Shown: one piece after another, positions 2,824-59,928 of the stretch | Layout: each line of letters opens with the position of its first letter | Position numbering within the stretch: the stretch's first letter is position 1 | Assembly (NCBI GenBank): GCA_023380475.1 | Contig: JAMCRD010000006.1 | Location: 117,996-181,995, forward strand | DNA length: 64,000 bases | Reading direction: 5' to 3' | From: Patescibacteria group bacterium | GTDB taxonomy: Bacteria; Patescibacteriota; Minisyncoccia; UBA6257; Colwellbacteraceae | The notes under the pieces: generated by a model | Databases searched by the model: none | What the model was told of the DNA's origin: nothing | What the model saw: the letters and a program-made list of their open reading frames with translations, nothing else | Translations under genes and position numbers: made by a program

Positions 2824-5308
2824 TTTTTATTTTGAAGACCCGAGGCTGAATATGTCCCTGCCCGCCAGGACGATCATTAACATCGTCATGTGGGTATGGA
2901 CGGTTGTGCTCGTTACGAGTACGGCCATATTCCTACTGTCCGGCGTTGCCTGGATGAGGGCGCTTGGCTTGCTGCTGGTGCTTTATCTGGCTGATCGTTT
3001 CATCCGCCGCAACCGTTCGAACAAGCCCCTGCGCAAGATACCCAAAGATGGGGATATAAACCTAGCAGACTACATGAGTCCGCAGGCGGTAAATTTGATG
3101 CTTTCTGCCTTTAGCCGAGCTCAGGTTTTCGGCGGCCACCCTTATCTGCATCTGGCCAAAGATCTGCTGGTAAGAAGCGAGGTGGACGAAGCGTTGCGCC
3201 GGCTGGATGTTTCCCGCGACGAACTGGGGGCAAAACTGGTCGAGCATCTGAATAAGAGTTTGCCAGTCAAATATAACCGCGAGCAGATAGCTAAATTGGC
3301 CAAGAAACTCACCTTAGCAGCAGCGCTCCAGGCCTCGAATGGGCAGACTGATGAGATAAATCCAGCCGACCTGTTTGCCGGCATATCGGCGGTGGGTGAG
3401 TTGGAAACAGCCAAAGTCTTCGACCTTTTCCAAATTGCCTCAGGCGATCTGGAAAAGGCTCTTATCTTTGGCCGCTTCAAATCCTCCCTGCGTTTTACCC
3501 GCCTACCCTCGAGCCTGGGAGGCTTTGCTAGGAGGGCCTATCGCACGAAGCACCGCTTTATGAACCGAGCTTGGACGGCCCGGCCCACGCCAGCCTTGGA
3601 TAGGGTCAGTTCTGATCTGACGGATATGGCGAGAGCCGCGAAGGTCGGTTTTATGATCGGGCACCACAAAGAATATGAAAGACTAGTCAATATCATTTCC
3701 CGCCCGGACAAGCCCAACGCGCTCTTGATCGGTGACCCAGGTGTCGGGAAAGCAACCGTAATCGACCATTTGGCGTACATGATCAATAGAGACGAAGTTC
3801 CACCGCCCTTGTTCGACAAGCGGTTGGTTGCTCTCGATATGAACGCCTTGCTGGCCGGAGCCGATCAAGGAGAAATTCAACGGCGGATCAAAGTTATCTT
3901 CAGTGAGATAGCGTCAGCCGGCAACATTATTTTGTACATACCGGATATACATAATCTCTCGCGCACTTCGCCTTCACGGGAGCTTTCGGCGGCCAATACC
4001 CTGCTGCCGCTCGTGGTTTCTAACGACTTCCCGACGATAGGCACGACTTACCCAAAGGAATACAAGCAGTTCATCGAGACAGACAGTGTTTTCGCCAGCT
4101 CTTTCCAGGAAATACAGATGGACGAGGTGAGTGAGGACGAGGCCGAGCGCATCATGGTCTACGACAGTGTGATTCTGGAAAAGATTTACAAGGTTAGGAT
4201 AACCTATGCTGCTATCAAGAACGCCGTGCAGCTGGCTAGAAGATACTTCCGCGAAAAACTTCTCCCTTCCTCGGCCGATGATCTGCTTAAAGAAGCTTTG
4301 ACAGAAGCCAATCGCAGCGGCGAGAAGTCGATCGGCAGCGATGATATAGCCCGCGTGGCGGAGAGGCGGGCTAGGGTGCCGATCCATAAGGCCGGTAATC
4401 TAGAGCGGGAGCAGCTGTTGCATCTCGAGGACATAATTCACGAGCAATTTATTGACCAGGAAGTCGCTGTTAAATCGGTGTCGCGGGCCCTACGCGAATA
4501 TCGCAGCGGCTTGGTGCGGAGAGGCGGTCCCATAAACTCATTCTTATTCGTCGGACCGACCGGGGTCGGTAAAACGGAGTTGTCCAAGATACTGGCCCGG
4601 GTTCAGTTCGGCTCAGAAAGTGCGATGATCCGCTTCGATATGTCCGAGTATCAGGATAAAGGTAGCGCCATGCGTTTGATTGGTTCGCCCGACGGCGCGG
4701 TAGCCGGCCTTTTGACCGACGCGGTCATCGAGCATCCTTACAGCTTGGTTTTGTTGGATGAATTTGAGAAAGCCAATCCGGACATTCTCAACTTGTTCCT
4801 GCAGGTTTTTGACGACGGGCGACTTACCGACAACTTGGGGCGGACGGTGAGTTTCGAGAACACGATGATCATCGCCACTTCCAACGCCCACTCCGAGTTT
4901 ATTAAAGACGAATTGGCCCAAGGCAAGAGCATGGAAGAAATAAGCAGCACCTTCAAGAGCAAACTGACCGACGTTTTCCACCCCGAGCTCTTAAACCGTA
5001 TGACAGTCATCGTCTTCCGTAACCTCGGTCCAGCAGATATAGCCAATATTGCCAAGTTTCAAATCGACGAACTGCGCAATACTCTCAAGAATGAGAAGGG
5101 TATAGAACTCAACGTGCCGACGGCGACCCTGACTAAGCTGGCAGAATGGGGTTACGATCCAGTTTTCGGAGCCAGGCCTCTCCGAGAGGTCATATCTGAG
5201 AAACTTCGCGGGCCTCTCTCAGAAATGATTCTGTCGACGGCCGTCGAAAGGGGAGCGGTGATAACAGCTGTGGTAGAGGGAGATAAAATCGGGCTAGATA
5301 TGAAATAG
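2801..5308 (+). CDS. Membrane-anchored Clp/Hsp100-family AAA+ ATPase (ClpC/ClpB-like, two nucleotide-binding domains)
   Basis: Two N-terminal TM helices, then Clp_N-like repeats. NBD1 Walker A is GDPGVGKAT and NBD2 Walker A is GPTGVGKTE. NBD2 Walker B is LVLLDEFEKA. C-terminal sensor-2 is GARPLRE. NBD1 Walker B reads ILYIPDIH, i.e. D but no catalytic E. Confidence 0.8.
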   Translation: MLTMESPNFYFEDPRLNMSLPARTIINIVMWVWTVVLVTSTAIFLLSGVAWMRALGLLLVLYLADRFIRRNRSNKPLRKIPKDGDINLADYMSPQAVNLMLSAFSRAQVFGGHPYLHLAKDLLVRSEVDEALRRLDVSRDELGAKLVEHLNKSLPVKYNREQIAKLAKKLTLAAALQASNGQTDEINPADLFAGISAVGELETAKVFDLFQIASGDLEKALIFGRFKSSLRFTRLPSSLGGFARRAYRTKHRFMNRAWTARPTPALDRVSSDLTDMARAAKVGFMIGHHKEYERLVNIISRPDKPNALLIGDPGVGKATVIDHLAYMINRDEVPPPLFDKRLVALDMNALLAGADQGEIQRRIKVIFSEIASAGNIILYIPDIHNLSRTSPSRELSAANTLLPLVVSNDFPTIGTTYPKEYKQFIETDSVFASSFQEIQMDEVSEDEAERIMVYDSVILEKIYKVRITYAAIKNAVQLARRYFREKLLPSSADDLLKEALTEANRSGEKSIGSDDIARVAERRARVPIHKAGNLEREQLLHLEDIIHEQFIDQEVAVKSVSRALREYRSGLVRRGGPINSFLFVGPTGVGKTELSKILARVQFGSESAMIRFDMSEYQDKGSAMRLIGSPDGAVAGLLTDAVIEHPYSLVLLDEFEKANPDILNLFLQVFDDGRLTDNLGRTVSFENTMIIATSNAHSEFIKDELAQGKSMEEISSTFKSKLTDVFHPELLNRMTVIVFRNLGPADIANIAKFQIDELRNTLKNEKGIELNVPTATLTKLAEWGYDPVFGARPLREVISEKLRGPLSEMILSTAVERGAVITAVVEGDKIGLDMK

Positions 5309-5316
5309 AGCGGGAA

Positions 5317-7047
5317 ATGAGGAATGAGGAGATCGCCAAAACGCTTGCGGCCATCGGAAGTTTCCTGGAGATGGACGAGGTGGCATTTAAGCCCAGGGCT
5401 TATGCTCGCGCTGCCGAGGCCATCTCCAATCTAGAGGAAGAAACATCGGAGATATATAAAAAAGGAGGTATAAAGGCGCTCGAGGAAATACCGGGAGTGG
5501 GTGCATCGATAGCTGAAAAAATTGAAGAGCTCTTAAAGACAGGCAAGCTGCAGTATTACGAGGATTTAAAGAAGAAGCATCCCATAAACGTGGCCGAGCT
5601 GTCGAGCATCGAGGGCCTCGGCCCGAAGACGATGCAGCTCTTATATAAGAAGCTGGGTGTAAAGAATTTGGCCGGGCTTGAGAAGGCCGTAAAAGACGGC
5701 AAGATTCGTAAGTTGCCCCGATTTGGGCAGAAATCGGAGGAGAAGATAGAAAAAGGTATTGAGGCTTACCACCGGCACTCCGGCCGCTTCCCCATCGGCG
5801 AAGTGGCGGGCCTAGCTGAATCGATCAAGGATATGCTCTGGAAAGTTCCTGGCGTATCCAGGGTAGATATCGCCGGATCGTTTAGGCGTCGTAAAGAAAC
5901 GGTTGGGGATCTGGACATGTTGGTTATATCAACGCGCCCCAAGGCGGTCATGGATGCGTTTATATCGCAGCCGGACGTGATCGAAGTAATCGCTCACGGC
6001 AATACCAAGTCTTCGGTGAGACTGAAGATCGGCATAGATGTCGATCTGCGTGTTGTTAATGCCGAGTCCTATGGGGCAGCACTGGCATACTTTACTGGTT
6101 CGAAACCGCACAATGTGGCCATGCGCCAGATGGCCCAAGATAAGGGGTGGAAACTTAACGAGTACGGTTTGTTCCGCAAGAGCGGGAAGGGGTGGATTGG
6201 TCTGGCCGGAAAGACGGAAGAGGAAATCTACGAAAAGCTCGGCTTGGAGTATGTACCGCCGGAGATGCGCGAAGACCTAGGTGAGCTGGATTTGGCGGCA
6301 GTGCACAAGCTGCCCCGCCTCATAGGCTACAAGGATCTGGTGGGCGACTTGCAGGTTCAATCCAACTGGACCGACGGCGCTAACTCGATCGAGGAAATGG
6401 CTCTGGCCGCTGAAAAAATGGGTTATAAGTATGTAGCTATAACCGATCATACCAAGCGGCTGGCTATGGCCCACGGCTTAGATGAAGCCGGGCTGGCGAA
6501 GCAGGGGGTAGAGATAGATCGAGTTAACAAGAAGTTGAAGGGTCGCATTAAAGTGCTGAAGGGGACGGAATGCGACGTTTTGAAAGATGGAACGTTGGAT
6601 ATATCCGACAAGACTCTGGCAAAGCTGGATATCGTCGGCGTTTCCATCCATTCCTACTTTGACTTGCCGCTTAAAGAACAGACAGCGCGACTCGAGAGAG
6701 CGATGCGCAACCCGAACGCCGATATAGTTTTTCATCCTACCTGCCGATTGATAAATAAACGCGAGCCAATCAGCATCGACATGGACAGAGTCATTAAAGT
6801 AGCCAAAGAGACGGGGATGGTTCTCGAGATAGACGGCATACCAGACAGACTGGACCTCAAGGACGAGTATATAAGAAAAGCTGTCGAGGTGGGGGTAAAA
6901 CTGTCGGTCGATTCCGACGCTCATGCTATCGCCCACTTGCCGTTTGCGAGCTACGGCTTGGCTCAAGCTCGCCGCGGCTGGGCCAAGCGCAGCGATATTG
7001 TGAATACTTGGCCGCTCGAGAGGATGAAGAAAATGTTAAAATCGTAA
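5317..7047 (+). CDS. polX: DNA polymerase X family protein with C-terminal PHP phosphoesterase domain
   Basis: N-terminal helix-hairpin-helix motifs (GVGASIAEKI, GLGPKTMQLL), Pol-beta-like nucleotidyltransferase core (GSFRRRKETVGDLDMLV), C-terminal PHP domain (ITDHT...HSYFD...DSDAH). Confidence 0.85.
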   Translation: MRNEEIAKTLAAIGSFLEMDEVAFKPRAYARAAEAISNLEEETSEIYKKGGIKALEEIPGVGASIAEKIEELLKTGKLQYYEDLKKKHPINVAELSSIEGLGPKTMQLLYKKLGVKNLAGLEKAVKDGKIRKLPRFGQKSEEKIEKGIEAYHRHSGRFPIGEVAGLAESIKDMLWKVPGVSRVDIAGSFRRRKETVGDLDMLVISTRPKAVMDAFISQPDVIEVIAHGNTKSSVRLKIGIDVDLRVVNAESYGAALAYFTGSKPHNVAMRQMAQDKGWKLNEYGLFRKSGKGWIGLAGKTEEEIYEKLGLEYVPPEMREDLGELDLAAVHKLPRLIGYKDLVGDLQVQSNWTDGANSIEEMALAAEKMGYKYVAITDHTKRLAMAHGLDEAGLAKQGVEIDRVNKKLKGRIKVLKGTECDVLKDGTLDISDKTLAKLDIVGVSIHSYFDLPLKEQTARLERAMRNPNADIVFHPTCRLINKREPISIDMDRVIKVAKETGMVLEIDGIPDRLDLKDEYIRKAVEVGVKLSVDSDAHAIAHLPFASYGLAQARRGWAKRSDIVNTWPLERMKKMLKS

Positions 7048-22708: not shown

Positions 22709-22949
22709 ACGGTGGTCGACCTCATTTTTTAGAGACGCCCTATTTGTTTTGAATAAGATGGTCGGCAGGCGTGTATTAGTTGGTGAAAGGCCACAATTAG
22801 CCTTACCAACTAAACATGAAAATAATCTACCATATACGCTGCCCTACCAGAAGCCAACCTACGACTAGCATAGATTGGTGATGTCGGTTCAACCTATGTA
22901 AAGTTTGCGTACATAAAACCGCGGCTAGGCCGCGGTTGTTATGTAAGTG

Positions 22950-23287
22950 TGGAGGCGGAGGGATTGAACCCTCGTCCAGGAAGTTGCTCAAAGGCGCTCT
23001 ACAAGCTTAGTCCTCTTGCGAAGACGTGGTTGCTCCCGGTGGTTTAACCTGCCTTATTGGGAACCTGTTGGGGCAGGCGATTCCGCTGTATGACACCGGT
23101 TTGACCTCTAGCGGAAATCGAGGACCGATGCCCGACTCATGTGGAGCCGAGGCCAGCATTAAGCCAAAGCCAATGCTGGGGCTGCAACTTTATAGTTGGC
23201 AGTTCTTGGTTTGCGACGGGTTTTACGAGCATGTCGCAGCTCGGCTTGCTACCTTTAAGGGTGCTCCCTGTCGAAGCTTGCGCCCCC
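22950..23287 (-). ncRNA. ssrA: tmRNA (SsrA)
   Basis: Minus-strand 5' end GGGGGCGCAAGC pairs with 3' end ...GGUUCAAUCCCUCCGCCUCC-A (tRNA-like T-arm and acceptor). Internal reading frame GCC AAC UAU AAA GUU GCA GCC CCA GCA UUG GCU UUG GCU UAA encodes the tag (A)NYKVAAPALALA. Located immediately downstream of smpB. Confidence 0.85.
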
Positions 23288-30095: not shown

Positions 30096-30323
30096 CTAAG
30101 AAAATTCTATTTTTGCTCCATGCGCGTTCATAGCCTCCACAATCTTTTTCGCCGTAAGTTTGTTTAATGAGTCATGCCGAGGGATCATAGTTATAAATTT
30201 ACCCGAAGAAGTACTTATCTTGGTGTGCTTAGATCCTTGGTAAATGCTAAACCCAAAACTTACAGCAATTTGTACAAGTTCTGAGTTAGAAGTATCTGCC
30301 GTATTAACACTTCTGGGCTTCAC
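30096..30323 (-). CDS. hicA: HicA-family toxin (YcfA-like mRNA interferase)
   Basis: 75 aa, ...SELVQIAVSFGFSIYQGSKHTKISTSSGKFITMIPRHDSLNKLTAKKIVEAMN... matches the HicA SH3-like fold consensus. Confidence 0.6.
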   Translation of the reverse strand: MKPRSVNTADTSNSELVQIAVSFGFSIYQGSKHTKISTSSGKFITMIPRHDSLNKLTAKKIVEAMNAHGAKIEFS

Positions 30324-30672
30324 TTGTAGAAAGCGGGAATACGAACCTTTGTGTGCTCTGGATAATAGGAAAGATATCTAATTTCTGGGCAGCCTCAATA
30401 GGAGGAATATAATTTGGTACATAAGGGATGAATTTGTCTGGTATTTCAAAATATGTCTTGACGGCGTCATTAACCATTTCTATCAATTCCGAGAAGCTAC
30501 TTGCTTCTGTAAAGAGACCGCTGAACGTGTGAATAGTCGCCAAAAAATCGCCGTTCTCCGAACGTTCAACGCTCACCTTTATTTCACTTGGGAATAAAGC
30601 CCGATATTTATTAACTTCTTCTACTTCTCTCTTATCCATTTTTTGATGGTCATCATAGCATATGGCTAACAA
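30304..30672 (-). CDS. hicB: HicB-family antitoxin
   Basis: 122 aa, upstream of and overlapping hicA by 20 nt; N-terminal RNase-H-like HicB block (KVSVERSENGDFLATIHTFSGLFTEASSFSELIEMVNDAVKTYFE). Confidence 0.5.
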   Translation of the reverse strand: MLAICYDDHQKMDKREVEEVNKYRALFPSEIKVSVERSENGDFLATIHTFSGLFTEASSFSELIEMVNDAVKTYFEIPDKFIPYVPNYIPPIEAAQKLDIFPIIQSTQRFVFPLSTSEAQKC

Positions 30673-30752: not shown

Positions 30753-32534
30753 TTATATCTCTATGATCACCGGCAAGACCATTGGTCTGCGGAAGGTTTG
30801 AGACCAGATAAGCTGACCAATCTGATCGCGGAATACCGCCTTAAGATAGTCAGGATCAATCTGCTGGTTGTGCGGTATACGGCCCATAATGCCCTTTGTT
30901 TTTTGTCTGATTTCATCCAGAAGTTTCTGGTTGTCGCGCAGATATATGAAACCTCTCGAAACTATGTCCGGATTCTTGATCAGCCGACCAGTCTTATGGT
31001 CGATGGTTACGATCATGACCAGCATTCCTTCCTCGGCCAGCATAAGCCGATCGCGGAGGACAACTTCACCGATGTCGCCGACGCCCAGACCGTCCACCAG
31101 AACATAGTTGGCCGGTACGGTTTCCTCTGTGATAATGAAGTCGTTCTTTGTCAGGAAAGCAACTTGGCCATTGTCCATCAAACGGACATTTTGGGGCAGC
31201 AGTCCGCCGCGGACGGCGTTCTCGCCGTTGGCCGAACGCATGAAGTAATGTCCGTGCACCGGCACGAAATACCTAGGTTTAAGTATGCTTACAACCAAGG
31301 AGATATCGTCCGCTGGAGCATGGCCGCTAGCGTGAATGTCTATCAAGCTGGACGTATACACCCTGGTTTTTTGTCTGGCTATGTTGTCCTTGAGATTTTG
31401 GACACTCCTTTCGTTGCCAGGAATAACTGATGAAGAGAAGATAACCGTGTCGCCCGGCTTGAGATGAATGTGCCTGTGCTCGCCGCTAATTATTCTCATC
31501 AAGCCCGCGCTGGATTCTCCTTGGGCACCGGTAGTGAGTATCAGTATCTTGTCGTCCTTATACTTCGAGACCTCCTCAGTTGTGATTAAAGTTCCTTTCT
31601 TAGCCTTCAGATATCCGAGGTTTTGGGCTATCTGGACGTTATCTTTCATCGAGCGGCCGTTGATAACCACCTTTCGATCCAGCCTTTCGGCGATTTTGAT
31701 CATCTCGGCGATACGAGTGAGCATTGAAGAAAAAGTGGCGACGATGATGCGTCCACTGGCTTCCTTGAACAAAGCCTCCAGATTTTTCTCGACCGTACGT
31801 TCGGATATGCTGTGGCCGGGCTCCTCGGCATTGGTGCTGTCGCACAAGAAGGTATGCACACCTTGTTTGCCTACGGCGGCTATCACATCCAAACCGTTGG
31901 GCTTGCCATCAGCAGTGTAATCGATACGAAAGTCGCCGAAGTGAACAATGTTCCCAATCGGGGTTTTGATTATGACTCCCACTGAGTCGGGGATGGTGTG
32001 TTCGATATTGAAGAACTCCAGTTCGAAGTATTTACCAACCTTAACTTTATCGCCGTGAGAGACACTGATAACGTTCAATTTAGGAGCGTTCACAAATTCT
32101 TCCTGCCGCTTCTCAATGATTGCTTTCGTCAGCTTTGCGGTATAGATGGTCGGATTGCCAACTTTGCCTATAAGGTAGGGGATCGCACCGATGTGATCGT
32201 AGTGGCCGTGAGTTAAGACCACGGCTTTAACGTTGTTCTTGCGCGGTTCGATATAACTCACGTTGGGAATAATGTAATCAATCCCGGGCGTATCTTCCTC
32301 GGGGAACTGGAAGCCCATATCGATTATTATCATCTCGTCCTTGTACTCGAGCAGGCTCATATTTCTCCCTATTTCCTCCATCCCCCCCAAGGGAATGAGG
32401 CGTAGAGTGTCATCTGGTGTAGGTTTAACCTTCTTAGAGGTTTCCGTTGTCTGTCCTTCTGGTTTTACATGCGGCGACAAGCGGACAGTGCGTGTTCGTG
32501 GCATGTTTGGATTGCGTCTTATGCGCGGTGTCAT
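30753..32534 (-). CDS. rnj: Ribonuclease J (metallo-beta-lactamase/beta-CASP)
   Basis: VLTHGHYDHIGAIPYL motif, beta-CASP region, ~50-aa basic N-terminal extension. Confidence 0.9.
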   Translation of the reverse strand: MTPRIRRNPNMPRTRTVRLSPHVKPEGQTTETSKKVKPTPDDTLRLIPLGGMEEIGRNMSLLEYKDEMIIIDMGFQFPEEDTPGIDYIIPNVSYIEPRKNNVKAVVLTHGHYDHIGAIPYLIGKVGNPTIYTAKLTKAIIEKRQEEFVNAPKLNVISVSHGDKVKVGKYFELEFFNIEHTIPDSVGVIIKTPIGNIVHFGDFRIDYTADGKPNGLDVIAAVGKQGVHTFLCDSTNAEEPGHSISERTVEKNLEALFKEASGRIIVATFSSMLTRIAEMIKIAERLDRKVVINGRSMKDNVQIAQNLGYLKAKKGTLITTEEVSKYKDDKILILTTGAQGESSAGLMRIISGEHRHIHLKPGDTVIFSSSVIPGNERSVQNLKDNIARQKTRVYTSSLIDIHASGHAPADDISLVVSILKPRYFVPVHGHYFMRSANGENAVRGGLLPQNVRLMDNGQVAFLTKNDFIITEETVPANYVLVDGLGVGDIGEVVLRDRLMLAEEGMLVMIVTIDHKTGRLIKNPDIVSRGFIYLRDNQKLLDEIRQKTKGIMGRIPHNQQIDPDYLKAVFRDQIGQLIWSQTFRRPMVLPVIIEI

Positions 32535-32560
32535 TTTTATTTGATTTTATTGTTTATTAG

Positions 32561-32643
32561 TGCCGAGGGCGGGACTTGAACCCGCAAGCCTTGAAGGCAC
32601 ACGGCCCTGAACCGTGCATGTTTGCCAGTTTCATCACCTCGGC
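32561..32643 (-). tRNA. tRNA-Leu (anticodon CAG), class II with long variable arm
   Basis: Minus-strand GCCGAGG acceptor / CCUCGGC-A, anticodon loop UUCAGGG (CAG), variable-arm hairpin GCCUUCAAGGC, T-arm GCGGGUUCAAGUCCCGC. Confidence 0.85.
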
Positions 32644-33287
32644 GATGTAACAAACTCTTTTGCTATAAAGAACTTTCTTTCTAAACGCGGTACGTTTGGT
32701 TTGTAGTAAATGCGATTCAGCAGGGCGATCGAGTCTTGTTTGCTGAATGTTAACCTGAATGTTACCGGATCATTTCTAATAAAGCCCCTTTTACCAGTTG
32801 CACTCGTAATCTTTCTCCTAAGCCACAAGATGTGCGGCAGTGAAGCAGACATAAAAGTGGTGTAAAGGCGTAGACTTTTTGGATAAACCGGATCGTTATA
32901 TTTCATGATACAACCATCTCCATCCAAATGTCCTCTGAGAAAATCAAAGAAGAGATCATTGGGTATCTTTAATGCCCCAAGACGTTTTGATTTATTGGGC
33001 ATTAAACCAACATCGAGAAGCCATCGGTAAAGTGTGACATTGCCAAATTGGATGTGAAACGAACTTAATCTGTTAGTGTAACTACTCCGCTTTCTAACTA
33101 TTCCGTTTTTTAAATTAAGGCACTTTTTAAAAGTCTCCATTTGATCCTTATCATTCGAAGTAAAGTCGAAGTGACGGCCATCCGGAGACAAACAGCCGTC
33201 TGTGGTGATAAGTCCCACGGCGTATGCAATCTGGGGTGACCAAGCAATTTCTTTTTGTCTAGGATACATTGACTTACTTGCGTCCAT
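32634..33287 (-). CDS. Free-standing LAGLIDADG homing endonuclease (two-motif, single-chain type)
   Basis: AYAVGLITTDGCL (motif 1) and FLRGHLDGDGCI (motif 2); wedged between pgi and tRNA-Leu, overlapping the tRNA 5' end by ~10 nt. Confidence 0.75.
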   Translation of the reverse strand: MDASKSMYPRQKEIAWSPQIAYAVGLITTDGCLSPDGRHFDFTSNDKDQMETFKKCLNLKNGIVRKRSSYTNRLSSFHIQFGNVTLYRWLLDVGLMPNKSKRLGALKIPNDLFFDFLRGHLDGDGCIMKYNDPVYPKSLRLYTTFMSASLPHILWLRRKITSATGKRGFIRNDPVTFRLTFSKQDSIALLNRIYYKPNVPRLERKFFIAKEFVTSPR

Positions 33288-34224
33288 AGTGTTTGTCTGA
33301 GCTGGCCGAACTTGCTTTCATCCAAGCTTTTAAGGTATCAATGCTCCGCGTTTCCTTTGGATCCCTGCCTTTGGCTATAGCCAGTTTGGTGGCTACAGCT
33401 TCTCCCAGGTAAACGCCTTTCCAGAAACGCTCGAACATAGTTTTACCATTTAATCTGACTACTAAAGTTTCTCCGCCAAGCTTTCTTATGATTTTCCCCG
33501 TAAGAGCTATGCGTTTTTCAATATACTCGGATTCACTCGGGTCTTGGATGAACATAACGCGGAACGGACTAGCCTGACCTTCGAAGCCGACAATCTCGTT
33601 ATGGTCCAGTTCCGGGAGCTGATCGACAAAGGCAGGAGTTTTGGCCGTTTCGTTAAGCCATATCTTCCAAATGTAAGCGAGAGACTTAAGTTGGTTTGAA
33701 GTATATATAAGAGGGACCTTTTTGTCAATAAATTTCAGGATGCCTGCGGCAGTGGCCGTTTTCTTTTTGGTGGGTATCGCCAGTTTCTTGCTGGTGACGC
33801 CGGCGGCGCTTGTTATCTTAATGAGTCCTTCAAATAGCGGAACTAGCGCGAAGCGCGGTACAAGCCCATCTTTATCAAATGTTACAAGCGGGAGTTTACG
33901 TGCCTCGGCCATTTTCTTCAGCTCTCCTCCAGTGGTAAGGACGGCTGTTTTCGAATGACCAACTTTTAATGCAGCCTCGAGGCCGCTGATGGTCTCGGCG
34001 GTCTCGCCGGAGAAGGAAACGGTTACAAACAAGGTGTACTTAGCGATATGCGGTGGCAGATTGTAATCTTTCCATATGACTACGGGAACTTTCACGCCTA
34101 ACGTGTCCCGGAAGGCGTCGAGTATCTCGCCTGGCAGGCCCGAACCGCCCATACCGCATATGACCAATTGGCTGGCCCTGAACCCTTTTAACTTTTCGAA
34201 GTGCTTTATGGAGTATTTGGTCAT
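33274..34224 (-). CDS. pgi: Bifunctional phosphoglucose/phosphomannose isomerase (SIS-domain, archaeal-type PGI/PMI)
   Basis: LVICGMGGSGLPGEILDAF and SFSGETAETI SIS-domain motifs; ~316 aa. Confidence 0.75.
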   Translation of the reverse strand: MTKYSIKHFEKLKGFRASQLVICGMGGSGLPGEILDAFRDTLGVKVPVVIWKDYNLPPHIAKYTLFVTVSFSGETAETISGLEAALKVGHSKTAVLTTGGELKKMAEARKLPLVTFDKDGLVPRFALVPLFEGLIKITSAAGVTSKKLAIPTKKKTATAAGILKFIDKKVPLIYTSNQLKSLAYIWKIWLNETAKTPAFVDQLPELDHNEIVGFEGQASPFRVMFIQDPSESEYIEKRIALTGKIIRKLGGETLVVRLNGKTMFERFWKGVYLGEAVATKLAIAKGRDPKETRSIDTLKAWMKASSASSDKHYGRK

Positions 34225-34227
34225 CGG

Positions 34228-35802
34228 TTACCTAAAGACTCTCTTGGTATTTATATACCATGAAGTTATATCTGAGAACCGGTCGGAGGCGACCGATATG
34301 TACTTGGTGCCGCTGAATCCGCCCAAGGTTGGGGTCGCAATATACAGATAATCCGGGGAATAGAGGAATATAGCCGGCAGGTCGCTGGCGATCTTGTTGC
34401 TGATCGTTTCCAAAAGCTGGGCGCGCTGGGTCGGATCAAAGGTGCTGCGATACTGCTCCAAAGCCGCGTCGACGCTTTTGTTGCTGTACAGTGATAGGTT
34501 CTGATCGGGGTAGAATCTTTGCGATGAATCCCAGAAAGCGAACAAGTCTTGGTTGGAGTCGGTGATATTGCCGAAGAGCAGCAGGGAATAATTGGAATTC
34601 TTGAGCGTATCTTCCTGGATGGTTTCGACCGGTAAAATGTTGAGGGCCAGGCTTATTCCCGCAGTTGCCCAGTCAGCTTGAATCATATCAGCGGTTTTAA
34701 CCAAGAAAGGATCGTCGGGTACGGTGAGTTGCAGCGACAGACCATTCAGAAGAGTTGAGGTAGATGACGTGGCGGATACGGGGTTCTGAGCCAGAGTGGT
34801 CGGTCCGTAGAGTACCTGGCCGTGGCCGCCCAGCACGTCGTTCACCAGTGCGGTGCGGTCGATAAGGGCCGATAGGGCCGAGCGGACTTTTATGTCTTGA
34901 AGCTGCTGCGGCGCCGTGGCCGGGTTTATGAATACGGCGTAGTAACGGTAGGTGTTCAGGTAGTACGGGGTATAACGTACAGCCAAGTTGGATATCACCG
35001 GATCATACGTTGAGAGGCCAAAGGAGTCTATCTGCCCGGCGTTGTAGGCGGCTACCAAACTTTGCGGGTCTTGGTAGAACTTGAAAACCAATGTGGAGAT
35101 ATTGGGAGCAGTGCCGAAATAGCGGTTGTTTGCAGCCAAGGTAACTGAGGTTATTGTCCCATCAGGAGCAGTCGAGTAGTCGTCGGCTATATAGGGACCC
35201 GAACCCACCGGCTTCAAGGCGTACACGGAGAGGTGCCAGTTTTGCACGGGTATATTGGCAAAGATATGCTCCGGAATTATAAGCATATTTTGCAGTTGGT
35301 TCTGCTGAAAGAAGGCGTACGGTGCCGGCAAGGAGAAGGTTACTTCTAGGGCGCTGACCCTGGTTACCTGAACGCCTTCAAAACTGCGGTAGAGGGGTGA
35401 ATTGTTATCGGGGTTTTGGATGGCCTGCATCGTGAAGACGACATCGTCCGCTGTTAGCTTCTGCCCGTCGCTCCAAAAGACATTTTGTTTCAAGCGCACA
35501 GTATAAGTCCGGTTGTCGGGAGACAGGGTTATGCTGTCGGCTAGATCGTCCACGCTCGAGTAAACCAGCTGTGAGATGTCGCGGTCGGCTTGGGTTACGG
35601 GTATTACCGGGTTTATTATGACCGGCTGGCTGGCTATGCCTTCGCGCAGTTCGCCGCCTGTGTCCCCGACCAAGTAACTGTTGGTTTGGACGTAGATGAC
35701 TGTGATTGCTACGGCGGAGACAATTGCGACCAAGAGCGCCACATAAAAGACGAAGCGTTCTCGGCTGGTCATGGCTTTGATTATCGCTGCAAGGCGTTTC
35801 AT
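34228..35802 (-). CDS. Extracellular solute-binding protein, family 5 (Opp/Dpp-type), orphan
   Basis: N-terminal anchor helix; SBP_bac_5-like core (YTVRLKQNVFWSDGQKLTADDVVFT); no ABC permease or ATPase adjacent. Confidence 0.75.
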   Translation of the reverse strand: MKRLAAIIKAMTSRERFVFYVALLVAIVSAVAITVIYVQTNSYLVGDTGGELREGIASQPVIINPVIPVTQADRDISQLVYSSVDDLADSITLSPDNRTYTVRLKQNVFWSDGQKLTADDVVFTMQAIQNPDNNSPLYRSFEGVQVTRVSALEVTFSLPAPYAFFQQNQLQNMLIIPEHIFANIPVQNWHLSVYALKPVGSGPYIADDYSTAPDGTITSVTLAANNRYFGTAPNISTLVFKFYQDPQSLVAAYNAGQIDSFGLSTYDPVISNLAVRYTPYYLNTYRYYAVFINPATAPQQLQDIKVRSALSALIDRTALVNDVLGGHGQVLYGPTTLAQNPVSATSSTSTLLNGLSLQLTVPDDPFLVKTADMIQADWATAGISLALNILPVETIQEDTLKNSNYSLLLFGNITDSNQDLFAFWDSSQRFYPDQNLSLYSNKSVDAALEQYRSTFDPTQRAQLLETISNKIASDLPAIFLYSPDYLYIATPTLGGFSGTKYISVASDRFSDITSWYINTKRVFR

Positions 35803-35846
35803 GCTGCGTAGTTGATAATGGGCCAGCCGCTAAGGCTGGTGCCAGG

Positions 35847-36068
35847 CTAGTGTTTTACAAGGTTGATCACCGACAGCGCGATGAATATCACTATCGCTGT
35901 GATGGTCGCTATAAACAATATTTTCTCTACACCGCGACGGGCTTGGTAGACCCCGCCCATGTCGCCACCGCCAAAAAGGCCGGAAATGCCGGACTCTCGC
36001 TCCTGTAACAAAATCAGGATGATGATTATTACCGAAACCAATATCTGGGCGATGTTGATGTAGCTCAT
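35847..36068 (-). CDS. secG: Preprotein translocase subunit SecG
   Basis: 73-aa two-TM protein with LLQERESGISGLFGGGDMGG glycine-rich loop typical of SecG. Confidence 0.7.
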   Translation of the reverse strand: MSYINIAQILVSVIIIILILLQERESGISGLFGGGDMGGVYQARRGVEKILFIATITAIVIFIALSVINLVKH

Positions 36069-57424: not shown

Positions 57425-57584
57425 TGTCTCTGCTCAACGATGGTGACAGATCGTTTACAAGTGAACAAATAAGTAACCAAATTGGTAAAGGTTCAAAACA
57501 ATAGATAATAAATAGAGAATTTTTTAGTTGTCCCAAAGCACTTTACTTTCGACCGGCCCAGCATGGGTGGTCGAAAGTTTTTTT

Positions 57585-59928
<2,344 letters not shown>

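Follow-up and report, generated by a model that had tools for sequence, protein, structure and literature searches.

What is a homing endonuclease gene (HEG) doing at the very edge of a bacterial tRNA gene? The question is raised by an open reading frame (ORF) on the minus strand, at positions 32634 to 33287, of a 64,000-nucleotide stretch of a Patescibacteria genome (contig JAMCRD010000006.1), which at its full length is called the window below. The ORF encodes a LAGLIDADG protein and lies between pgi and a class II tRNA-Leu gene, with no intron or intein host, as stated in a preliminary description of the sequence and as borne out by ARAGORN, Rfam and Pfam. We argue that it is probably, at a probability of roughly 0.75, a free-standing and active monomeric LAGLIDADG HEG belonging to a mobile family specialized on the edges of tRNA-Leu genes.

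The identity of the ORF was established from the ORF list, Pfam, a PDB match, a structural model and homologues. Read from its first ATG, it encodes 217 amino acids. In an alignment of 36 sequences, which also underlies the conservation figures given here, the N termini of the homologues align at Met7 (ATG at 33269); because they begin there we prefer this start, which is probably the true one and yields a protein of 211 residues. The first LAGLIDADG motif, AYAVGLITTDGCL, spans residues 21 to 33 (33189 to 33227, minus strand) and contains the catalytic Asp30, and the second, FLRGHLDGDGCI, spans residues 116 to 127 (32907 to 32942, minus strand) and contains the catalytic Asp124. Residues G25, L26, T29, D30, G31 and L33 of motif 1 and F116, R118, G119, D122, G123, D124 and G125 of motif 2 are invariant, and the whole alignment has 34 invariant positions, both catalytic Asp residues among them. 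Degeneration of the motifs, which had been named as the possible sign of a pseudogene, is thus not seen.

The Pfam profile LAGLIDADG_3 (PF14528) matched the N-terminal half only, with 26.5 bits against a cut-off of 22.5, and no NCBIfam profile matched the ORF. The sole meaningful sequence match in the PDB was I-Tsp061I (2dch), an archaeal intron enzyme (E = 0.005). An AlphaFold model obtained from 36 homologues (predicted local distance difference test [pLDDT], 89.6; predicted template modeling score [pTM], 0.88) predicted an alpha-beta-beta-alpha-beta-beta-alpha half that is present twice. A Foldseek search of the PDB with this model returned I-Tsp061I first (E = 1.5e-9), followed by E-DreI, I-SceI, I-AniI and I-DmoI, each with a probability of 1.00. 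With its two Asp-bearing motifs, a profile score above the curated threshold and a doubled predicted fold, the ORF belongs, as judged from sequence and modeled structure, to the single-chain, two-domain proteins of the LAGLIDADG superfamily and is of the I-DmoI/I-Tsp061I type. The single-chain enzyme of 217 residues with both motifs that was first described is therefore upheld by the ORF list, the motifs, Pfam and the fold model.

Rfam intron models gave no match between 32400 and 33400 at E ≤ 1. The ORF is bounded by start and stop codons of its own, no intein host was found, with no flanking extein or Hint-domain matches, and the homologues are stand-alone proteins. The ORF is thus neither intron-encoded nor intein-associated, and by its sequence context it is a free-standing HEG, as had been surmised. 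Its 3′ end is shared with the adjoining tRNA-Leu(CAG) gene, which is intact and lies directly 3′ of the ORF (32560 to 32643, minus strand; ARAGORN, Rfam and nhmmer). As read from the sequence, the two genes overlap by 10 nt (32634 to 32643, minus strand), in agreement with the earlier remark that the last codons of the ORF run into the tRNA 5′ arm: the final codons are TCG CCG AGG TGA, and the TGA stop codon corresponds to tRNA bases T8, G9 and A10. A Pro-Arg ending directly before the stop recurs in many homologues, and C-terminal tails such as this one or AEVVKL... in the protein alignment represent the tRNA 5′ end read in frame. At the other side, an overlap with pgi depends on the ATG chosen, because the Met7 start falls after the pgi stop. 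The overlap of the ORF start with the pgi stop that was initially reported holds from the first ATG, whereas the 211-residue version begins 4 nt past that stop (TAA, 33274 to 33276).

The history of the locus was read from its relatives. Metagenome contigs were scanned with the window RNase J, the conserved neighbor downstream of tRNA-Leu(CAG) (30753 to 32534, minus strand; Pfam), which served as the synteny anchor and yielded 77 related loci. A tRNA-Leu(CAG) gene is located just upstream of RNase J in 55 of the 77. Among these 55 syntenic loci, a LAGLIDADG ORF is found in one (L118), and 54 have a normal tRNA-Leu without the ORF. The closest relative, L086, whose RNase J and pgi products are 85% and 72% identical to those of the window, has an empty site: its pgi ends with ...KAWMKK and a stop codon, followed by 6 nt (ttcatt) and then by the tRNA. 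The window pgi is colinear with that of L086 up to KAWMK, and the pairwise alignment contains one clean gap of approximately 660 nt in L086, from past TGGATG (33319) to the tRNA 5′ end. The segment missing from L086 (32644 to 33319, minus strand, approximately 660 to 675 bp) comprises the ORF and a leader of approximately 25 to 45 nt, its left edge being ambiguous between 33311 and 33319. Relative to L086, the original pgi stop was lost, and the last 13 pgi codons of the window (33277 to 33315; ASSASSDKHYGRK) come from the inserted DNA. The tRNA genes of the window and L086 are 72% identical; in pairs of HEG-free loci that are equally distant in RNase J, this identity varies between 65% and 100%. 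Because the relatives, including L086, lack the ORF, the tRNA-Leu(CAG)-RNase J arrangement is ancestral and the ORF an addition little larger than its coding sequence. The ORF has been inserted sporadically and does not belong to the host's gene set, and the site shows a presence/absence polymorphism with a definable empty state. The synteny comparison that had been proposed as a check thus confirmed insertion.

The window ORF belongs to a large family. A word-indexed protein search returned at least 1,664 homologous proteins, of which the best 120 are 53 to 69% identical to the query, mostly approximately 205 to 220 residues long, and come from Patescibacteria and Chloroflexi; a minority of these 120 are shorter, some of them from contigs of approximately 1 kb. 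In an exhaustive search of representatives clustered at 50% identity, 94 clusters matched at E ≤ 1e-30 and 711 at E ≤ 1e-10; when one genome was scanned for each species, 438 stretches proved to contain relatives. The best 80 of these 438 loci come from many lineages of Patescibacteria, from Chloroflexi/Anaerolineales and from Omnitrophota. No relatives were found in IMG/VR, and GenBank phages have only LAGLIDADG proteins that are 25 to 28% identical. A phage or virus reservoir was rejected on these grounds.

The constant companion of the family is a tRNA-Leu gene, which adjoins the ORF in 80 of 83 loci over which positions were counted. In 72 of them (25 CAG and 47 GAG) the tRNA-Leu starts on the same strand at −114 to +39 nt relative to the ORF stop, and in 8 the end of a tRNA-Leu(CAA) gene immediately precedes the ORF start; of the remaining loci, two have a contig end directly past the ORF and one (L022) has an atypical arrangement. 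The gene upstream differs among loci and may be pgi, SBP_bac_5, a peptidase or another tRNA. Of the targets that had been suggested, tRNA-Leu fits best; the pgi side of the proposed tRNA-Leu/pgi junction did not stand, as pgi is variable. At eight GAG-clade loci (L030, L031, L043, L051, L060, L065, L074 and L085) a complete tRNA-Leu(CAG) gene is found just upstream of the ORF and a tRNA-Leu(GAG) gene just downstream; several loci with the element between two tRNA-Leu genes are labeled Microgenomates (Levyi-, Curtiss- and Daviesbacteria). We found no description of free-standing LAGLIDADG genes beside tRNA-Leu in the literature searched, and the tRNA-Leu-linked family has apparently not been described before.

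Further traces of insertion are truncated tRNA pieces, which were found by a tRNA-Leu profile search (nhmmer) and are numbered by profile position. A 5′ fragment is present just upstream of the ORF in L012, L038, L046 and L079 (positions 1 to 37 or 1 to 38) and in L027 (1 to 28). On the other side, L057 has a 3′ fragment (53 to 85) and L048 a degenerate 3′ piece, both directly past the ORF stop. In L079 the fragment and the intact copy share the acceptor strand and differ in the D-arm and anticodon stem. In 27 of the 47 GAG loci, the sequence TTGG[TC]A[TG]ACGC-N6-7-CTTGAG followed by (G)TATAAT precedes the ORF; it corresponds to tRNA-Leu(GAG) from the D-loop to the anticodon loop, then a −10 box. 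In L063 this motif, TTGGCA-18-TATAAT, is the best promoter-like site of the region, with a score of 11/12. For the fragment-bearing lineages, we infer from these sequences that the element entered inside a tRNA gene together with a replacement tRNA segment, and that the old piece left behind is now used as a promoter.

L063 has a second strong promoter-like site (TTGAAA-17-TATAAT, 11/12; 6601 to 6629) inside the 3′ end of the ORF, approximately 20 nt short of the tRNA, which at this locus may thus keep a putative promoter of its own embedded in the endonuclease coding sequence. In L017, a tRNA-Leu 5′ fragment (4852 to 4879; positions 1 to 28, E = 0.005) is located 1.1 kb upstream of the ORF and does not adjoin it. 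Upstream of the window ORF, no fragment was detected by local alignment to the intact tRNA (z = 0.6) or by nhmmer. The sequence CAGACAAACAC, which precedes the first ATG, is similar to tRNA bases 17 to 26; this was taken for a chance likeness because close relatives show no fragment.

The tRNAs beside the ORF also differ from others at one pair of the D-stem. The pair G10:C25 is normally invariant, or nearly universal, in tRNA. The window tRNA has A10:U25 instead (A10 at 32634 and T25 at 32618, minus strand; tRNA alignment and pair counts), whereas its HEG-free relatives have G10:C25. Among 54 HEG-free tRNA-Leu(CAG) genes, 53 have G:C and one G·U, and none has A:U, C:G, U:A or U·U. Among 72 HEG-linked tRNAs, 35 have G:C, 20 A:U, 12 C:G and 4 U:A, none has G·U and one has U·U, so that a standard pair is kept in 71 of the 72. 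Of 71 tRNAs whose 5′ side faces the ORF, 36 have a base other than G at position 10; in the same data this holds for 4 of 78 tRNA-Leu genes that do not adjoin an ORF (Fisher p = 1e-10, for counts that are not phylogenetically independent). That A10 serves purely as a source of the TGA stop was rejected as a full explanation, because A10 is likewise found at loci whose ORF ends ahead of the tRNA (L001, L004, L011, L016, L017 and L034) and because C10 and U10 make no stop. The 10:25 swap adjoins the end points of the 5′ fragments (bases 26 to 28 and 36 to 38). We therefore propose that the nuclease may recognize the region from the D-arm to the anticodon arm, and that the compensated swap may protect the alleles that carry it.

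Phylogenetic comparisons point to horizontal spread of genes that are kept functional. In a neighbor-joining tree, the HEG proteins form clades by isoacceptor (GAG, CAG and CAA), not by host phylum, and Chloroflexi and Omnitrophota sequences are nested among those of Patescibacteria. Identities of HEG and RNase J were compared over 10 HEG-bearing loci that also contain RNase J. In a close genome pair the HEG proteins are 72% identical and the RNase J proteins 83%, and the HEG is therefore the faster-evolving gene under vertical inheritance. In distant pairs the HEG proteins are 52 to 66% identical as against 39 to 50% for RNase J, and between the window and a Chloroflexi locus (L004) the values are 57% for the HEG and 31% for the neighboring SBP protein. 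HEG identity above that of housekeeping neighbors at deep divergence requires horizontal transfer. The phylogeny of the HEG thus appears incongruent with that of the hosts, as seen from the intermixed phyla, with moderate bootstrap, and from the identity comparisons. The ratio of nonsynonymous to synonymous substitution rates (dN/dS) amounts to 0.11 and 0.13 for the two pairs whose dS is unsaturated; together with the invariant positions, these values show that the genes have been kept functional, and the family is, by this measure of its sequences, under purifying selection.

A mobile HEG specialized on tRNA-Leu genes would behave as follows. The enzyme would cut HEG-free tRNA-Leu genes within the region from the D-arm to the anticodon arm. 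The break would be repaired from an HEG-bearing copy, the ORF and a replacement piece of tRNA being copied in and an intact tRNA being rebuilt beside the ORF. A truncated tRNA fragment would remain on the ORF's other side, as in many family members, and in the GAG lineage this leftover and the TATAAT box would make up the promoter-like site. The rebuilt tRNA would escape renewed cutting through the compensated 10:25 swap, seen in the window as A10:U25. The copy in the window is compact, lacks both a visible fragment and an own promoter, and is presumably cotranscribed with pgi and the tRNA. In a more far-reaching form, which might be called a tRNA gene replacement drive, cutting of an ordinary tRNA-Leu would lead to repair that installs both the ORF and a resistant tRNA with a flipped 10:25 pair, and the displaced piece would be recycled as the promoter of ORF and tRNA. 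We offer this form tentatively, as a conjecture that may well prove wrong.

Several observations weigh against a mobile family of this kind. An insertion at the tRNA 5′ edge has just one flank that is conserved between species, and cross-species homing is for that reason harder to explain than it is for an intron. The identity between the window and L086 is 70 to 80% throughout and does not fall at the junction as co-conversion would lead one to expect. The identities of the HEG and of RNase J are correlated (r = 0.62), which implies that much of the inheritance is vertical, and bootstrap values of the tree are moderate (GAG 38, CAA 46 and CAG core 24, of 60 replicates). No tRNA fragment is found in the subfamily of the window (L006, L163, L165/166 and L167), and the fragment of L046 matches the intact copy exactly over the first 27 nt. 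As to the D-stem, approximately half of the HEG-linked tRNAs retain G10:C25, and the HEG-free controls are mostly CAG genes of one host lineage, so that the counts are not phylogenetically independent.

The correlation with RNase J would also be expected if the ORF had become a vertically inherited host protein, for instance one that binds DNA or RNA and is needed for the adjoining tRNA-Leu to be expressed or processed. The same position beside tRNA-Leu in three phyla, a dN/dS of approximately 0.1, the SecG-SBP-ORF-tRNA-Leu synteny common to Patescibacteria and a Chloroflexi genome, and a possible dependence of the tRNA on transcription through the ORF all fit such domestication. The preliminary description had named as its sign relatives in which the ORF occupies the same place, is under purifying selection and has no insertion footprint. 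The first two features are indeed seen in relatives, but footprints exist in the family. A same-place ORF under purifying selection is no proof of domestication, because 54 of 55 syntenic relatives lack the ORF and have a normal tRNA-Leu, truncated tRNA fragments in the family mark insertion events, and phyla are mixed in the tree. The closest relative has a clean empty site, HEG identity exceeds that of housekeeping neighbors at deep divergence, and both catalytic Asp residues are invariant, unlike in known domesticated relatives such as WhiA. We consider domestication improbable. It is more improbable still that the ORF is an inactive or decaying selfish gene that persists since it cannot be cleanly deleted, its end overlapping a tRNA that may need transcription from upstream. 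The stop codon inside the tRNA, the promoter-like fragment upstream of the ORF in the GAG lineage and the lack of an own promoter in the window copy would agree with this idea, but not so the low dN/dS, the 34 invariant positions with the catalytic ones included, or the full length of most of the 120 best database matches.

LAGLIDADG genes are usually intron-borne, and the best structural match of the ORF is an archaeal intron-encoded enzyme. The upstream fragment of the GAG lineage moreover ends in the anticodon loop, the classic region of bacterial tRNA group I introns (PMC13011429). One might thus suppose that a group I intron once occupied the anticodon loop of tRNA-Leu, that its ribozyme decayed and that the ORF was left stranded and immobile. 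However, no group I or group II intron model matched the window region or, at the gathering threshold, any of 22 family loci, and we likewise found no evidence for the relocated intron-borne HEG that had been considered at the outset. A complete tRNA stands beside the ORF, making splicing unnecessary, the catalytic residues are intact under purifying selection, and a 2026 survey of Patescibacteria tRNA introns contains no LAGLIDADG-bearing tRNA-Leu intron (PMC13011429). We rank an intron relic as the least probable of these explanations, and retain the mobile, tRNA-Leu-specialized HEG as the preferred one.

How the window copy might be expressed follows from its surroundings. The upstream gene, pgi (33274 to 34224, minus strand), encodes a SIS-domain phosphoglucose/phosphomannose isomerase (Pfam bact-PGI_C, 124 bits; NCBIfam G6PI_arch, 203 bits, slightly below its cut-off of 213.9). 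No recognizable promoter was found between pgi and the ORF start, and the ORF is probably cotranscribed with pgi and the tRNA. Cleavage by RNase P at the tRNA 5′ end would then strip the stop codon from the ORF and result in low expression, and full-length endonuclease would come from unprocessed transcripts alone. From the overlap of the two genes, such cleavage is a plausible built-in brake on the endonuclease. A tmRNA gene with the tag peptide ANYKVAAPALALA is present in the window at 22947 to 23287, and is relevant to an mRNA that loses its stop through an RNase P cut.

The window tRNA was not listed by a window-wide Rfam run at the gathering threshold. That it might be defective was rejected: a local scan with RF00005 gives 49 bits at 32561 to 32643 with all pairs standard, and nhmmer with the tRNA-Leu profile covers positions 1 to 85 at 63.9 bits. 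The miss is a filter artifact, presumably caused by speed filters. Rfam scans of long stretches at the gathering threshold missed several HEG-linked tRNA-Leu genes that ARAGORN found (L079, L041, L006, L001, L004 and the window), and such genes may be under-called by routine pipelines.

The gene order SecG, SBP_bac_5, (pgi), tRNA-Leu(CAG) is common to Patescibacteria and one Chloroflexi genome (L004, 1440 to 4735; L001; L002; window, 32560 to 36068). Escherichia coli has a secG-leuU (tRNA-Leu) operon, and the SecG-tRNA-Leu linkage may be very old. Between RNase J and the tryptophanyl-tRNA synthetase (TrpRS) gene, two small minus-strand ORFs at 30096 to 30672 have weak Pfam matches to HicA (17.7 bits) and a HicB-like domain (14.1 bits). 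This block cannot be aligned to the otherwise colinear L086 (identity approximately 0.49) and represents a second insertion/deletion difference.

The window also contains a 16S rRNA gene (57579 to 59910) that is interrupted near its 3′ end. The Rfam small-subunit (SSU) match covers 57579 to 59060, and the conserved 3′ motifs GCCCGTCACGCCA (approximately 59417) and GAAGTCGTA followed by ACAAGG lie beyond it. The latter is split between GAAGTCGTA and ACAAGG by a group I intron without an ORF (59523 to 59875, 75.9 bits). The motif positions thus indicate an insertion of several hundred nucleotides after approximately 59009, plus an intron. No 23S match was found before 64000. A link between the HEG and these rRNA insertion sites, which had been put forward as an alternative target, was rejected, since the window holds a single copy of the ORF and the 16S intron has none.

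Free-standing LAGLIDADG HEGs are rarely reported in bacterial chromosomes, and none tied to tRNA genes was found in the literature searched. The family comprises at least 1,664 proteins and is present in at least 438 species-level genomes; on this scale it would make tRNA-Leu genes a major home of such enzymes in small-genome bacteria, besides rRNA and tRNA introns, and it may explain variation of the near-universal G10:C25 pair. If the replacement drive were real, compensatory change in an essential tRNA would be driven directly by a selfish element in three bacterial phyla, and each of the isoacceptor genes (CAG, GAG and CAA) would have a nuclease lineage adapted to it. The family also offers many compact natural meganucleases of approximately 210 residues that should recognize related, predictable targets. 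For annotation, it concerns tRNA-overlapping ORFs labeled "hypothetical."

Among known systems, the nearest by host are the LAGLIDADG genes of rRNA insertions in the candidate phyla radiation (CPR), whose 16S insertions carry LAGLIDADG_3 proteins with a patchy distribution (PMC11270868). They share host phylum and enzyme superfamily with the window ORF; unlike it, they are housed within rRNA genes, in many cases by group I introns. The study of these insertions covers no tRNA loci, and its text never uses the word "tRNA." Group I introns of tRNA genes are known in Patescibacteria (PMC13011429). By architecture, the closest enzymes are I-DmoI and I-Tsp061I, encoded in archaeal rRNA introns and belonging to LAGLIDADG_3. 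Like them, the ORF encodes one chain of approximately 200 residues with two motifs, each ending in an acidic residue, and its predicted fold matches both, 2dch also being the best PDB sequence match. In contrast, it is only approximately 16 to 17% identical to them, is not in an intron, has bacterial hosts, and has the flank of a tRNA-Leu gene, rather than rRNA, as its home site.

WhiA (DUF199), a domesticated regulator with a LAGLIDADG fold, is likewise encoded in bacterial chromosomes and has the two-domain fold (Foldseek match 3hyi, rank 6). WhiA is a core gene whose product has lost the catalytic acidic residues and has a C-terminal helix-turn-helix domain. In the window ORF both Asp residues are retained and no further domain is present, and its distribution is sporadic, with 54 of 55 relatives lacking it; it is thus not of the WhiA type.

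Free-standing homing endonucleases are familiar from phages, in particular the Seg and Mob proteins of T4, including SegB in the T4 tRNA gene cluster. These are GIY-YIG or HNH enzymes of phage genomes that spread during coinfection, and the immunity of carriers is attributed to differences in target sequence. Like them, the window ORF is a free-standing gene wedged between conserved genes, with presence/absence polymorphism among relatives and a putative carrier immunity that would have the same kind of cause, but it encodes a LAGLIDADG protein and resides in a cellular chromosome. SegB is mentioned in PMC13096335.

The arrangement of intact gene and remnant, finally, is like that left by the Allomyces atp6 element: L038, L046, L079 and L057 have an intact gene beside the ORF and a truncated remnant on the other side. 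Fungal mitochondrial endonuclease elements such as this one bring with them a second copy of the end of the gene that their insertion displaces. The tRNA-Leu-linked elements differ in that the host gene encodes a tRNA, not a protein, and the window copy is without a remnant. The "recoding" of the restored gene would accordingly take another form, with compensated stem swaps in the tRNA-Leu family in place of the synonymous changes of the fungal elements.

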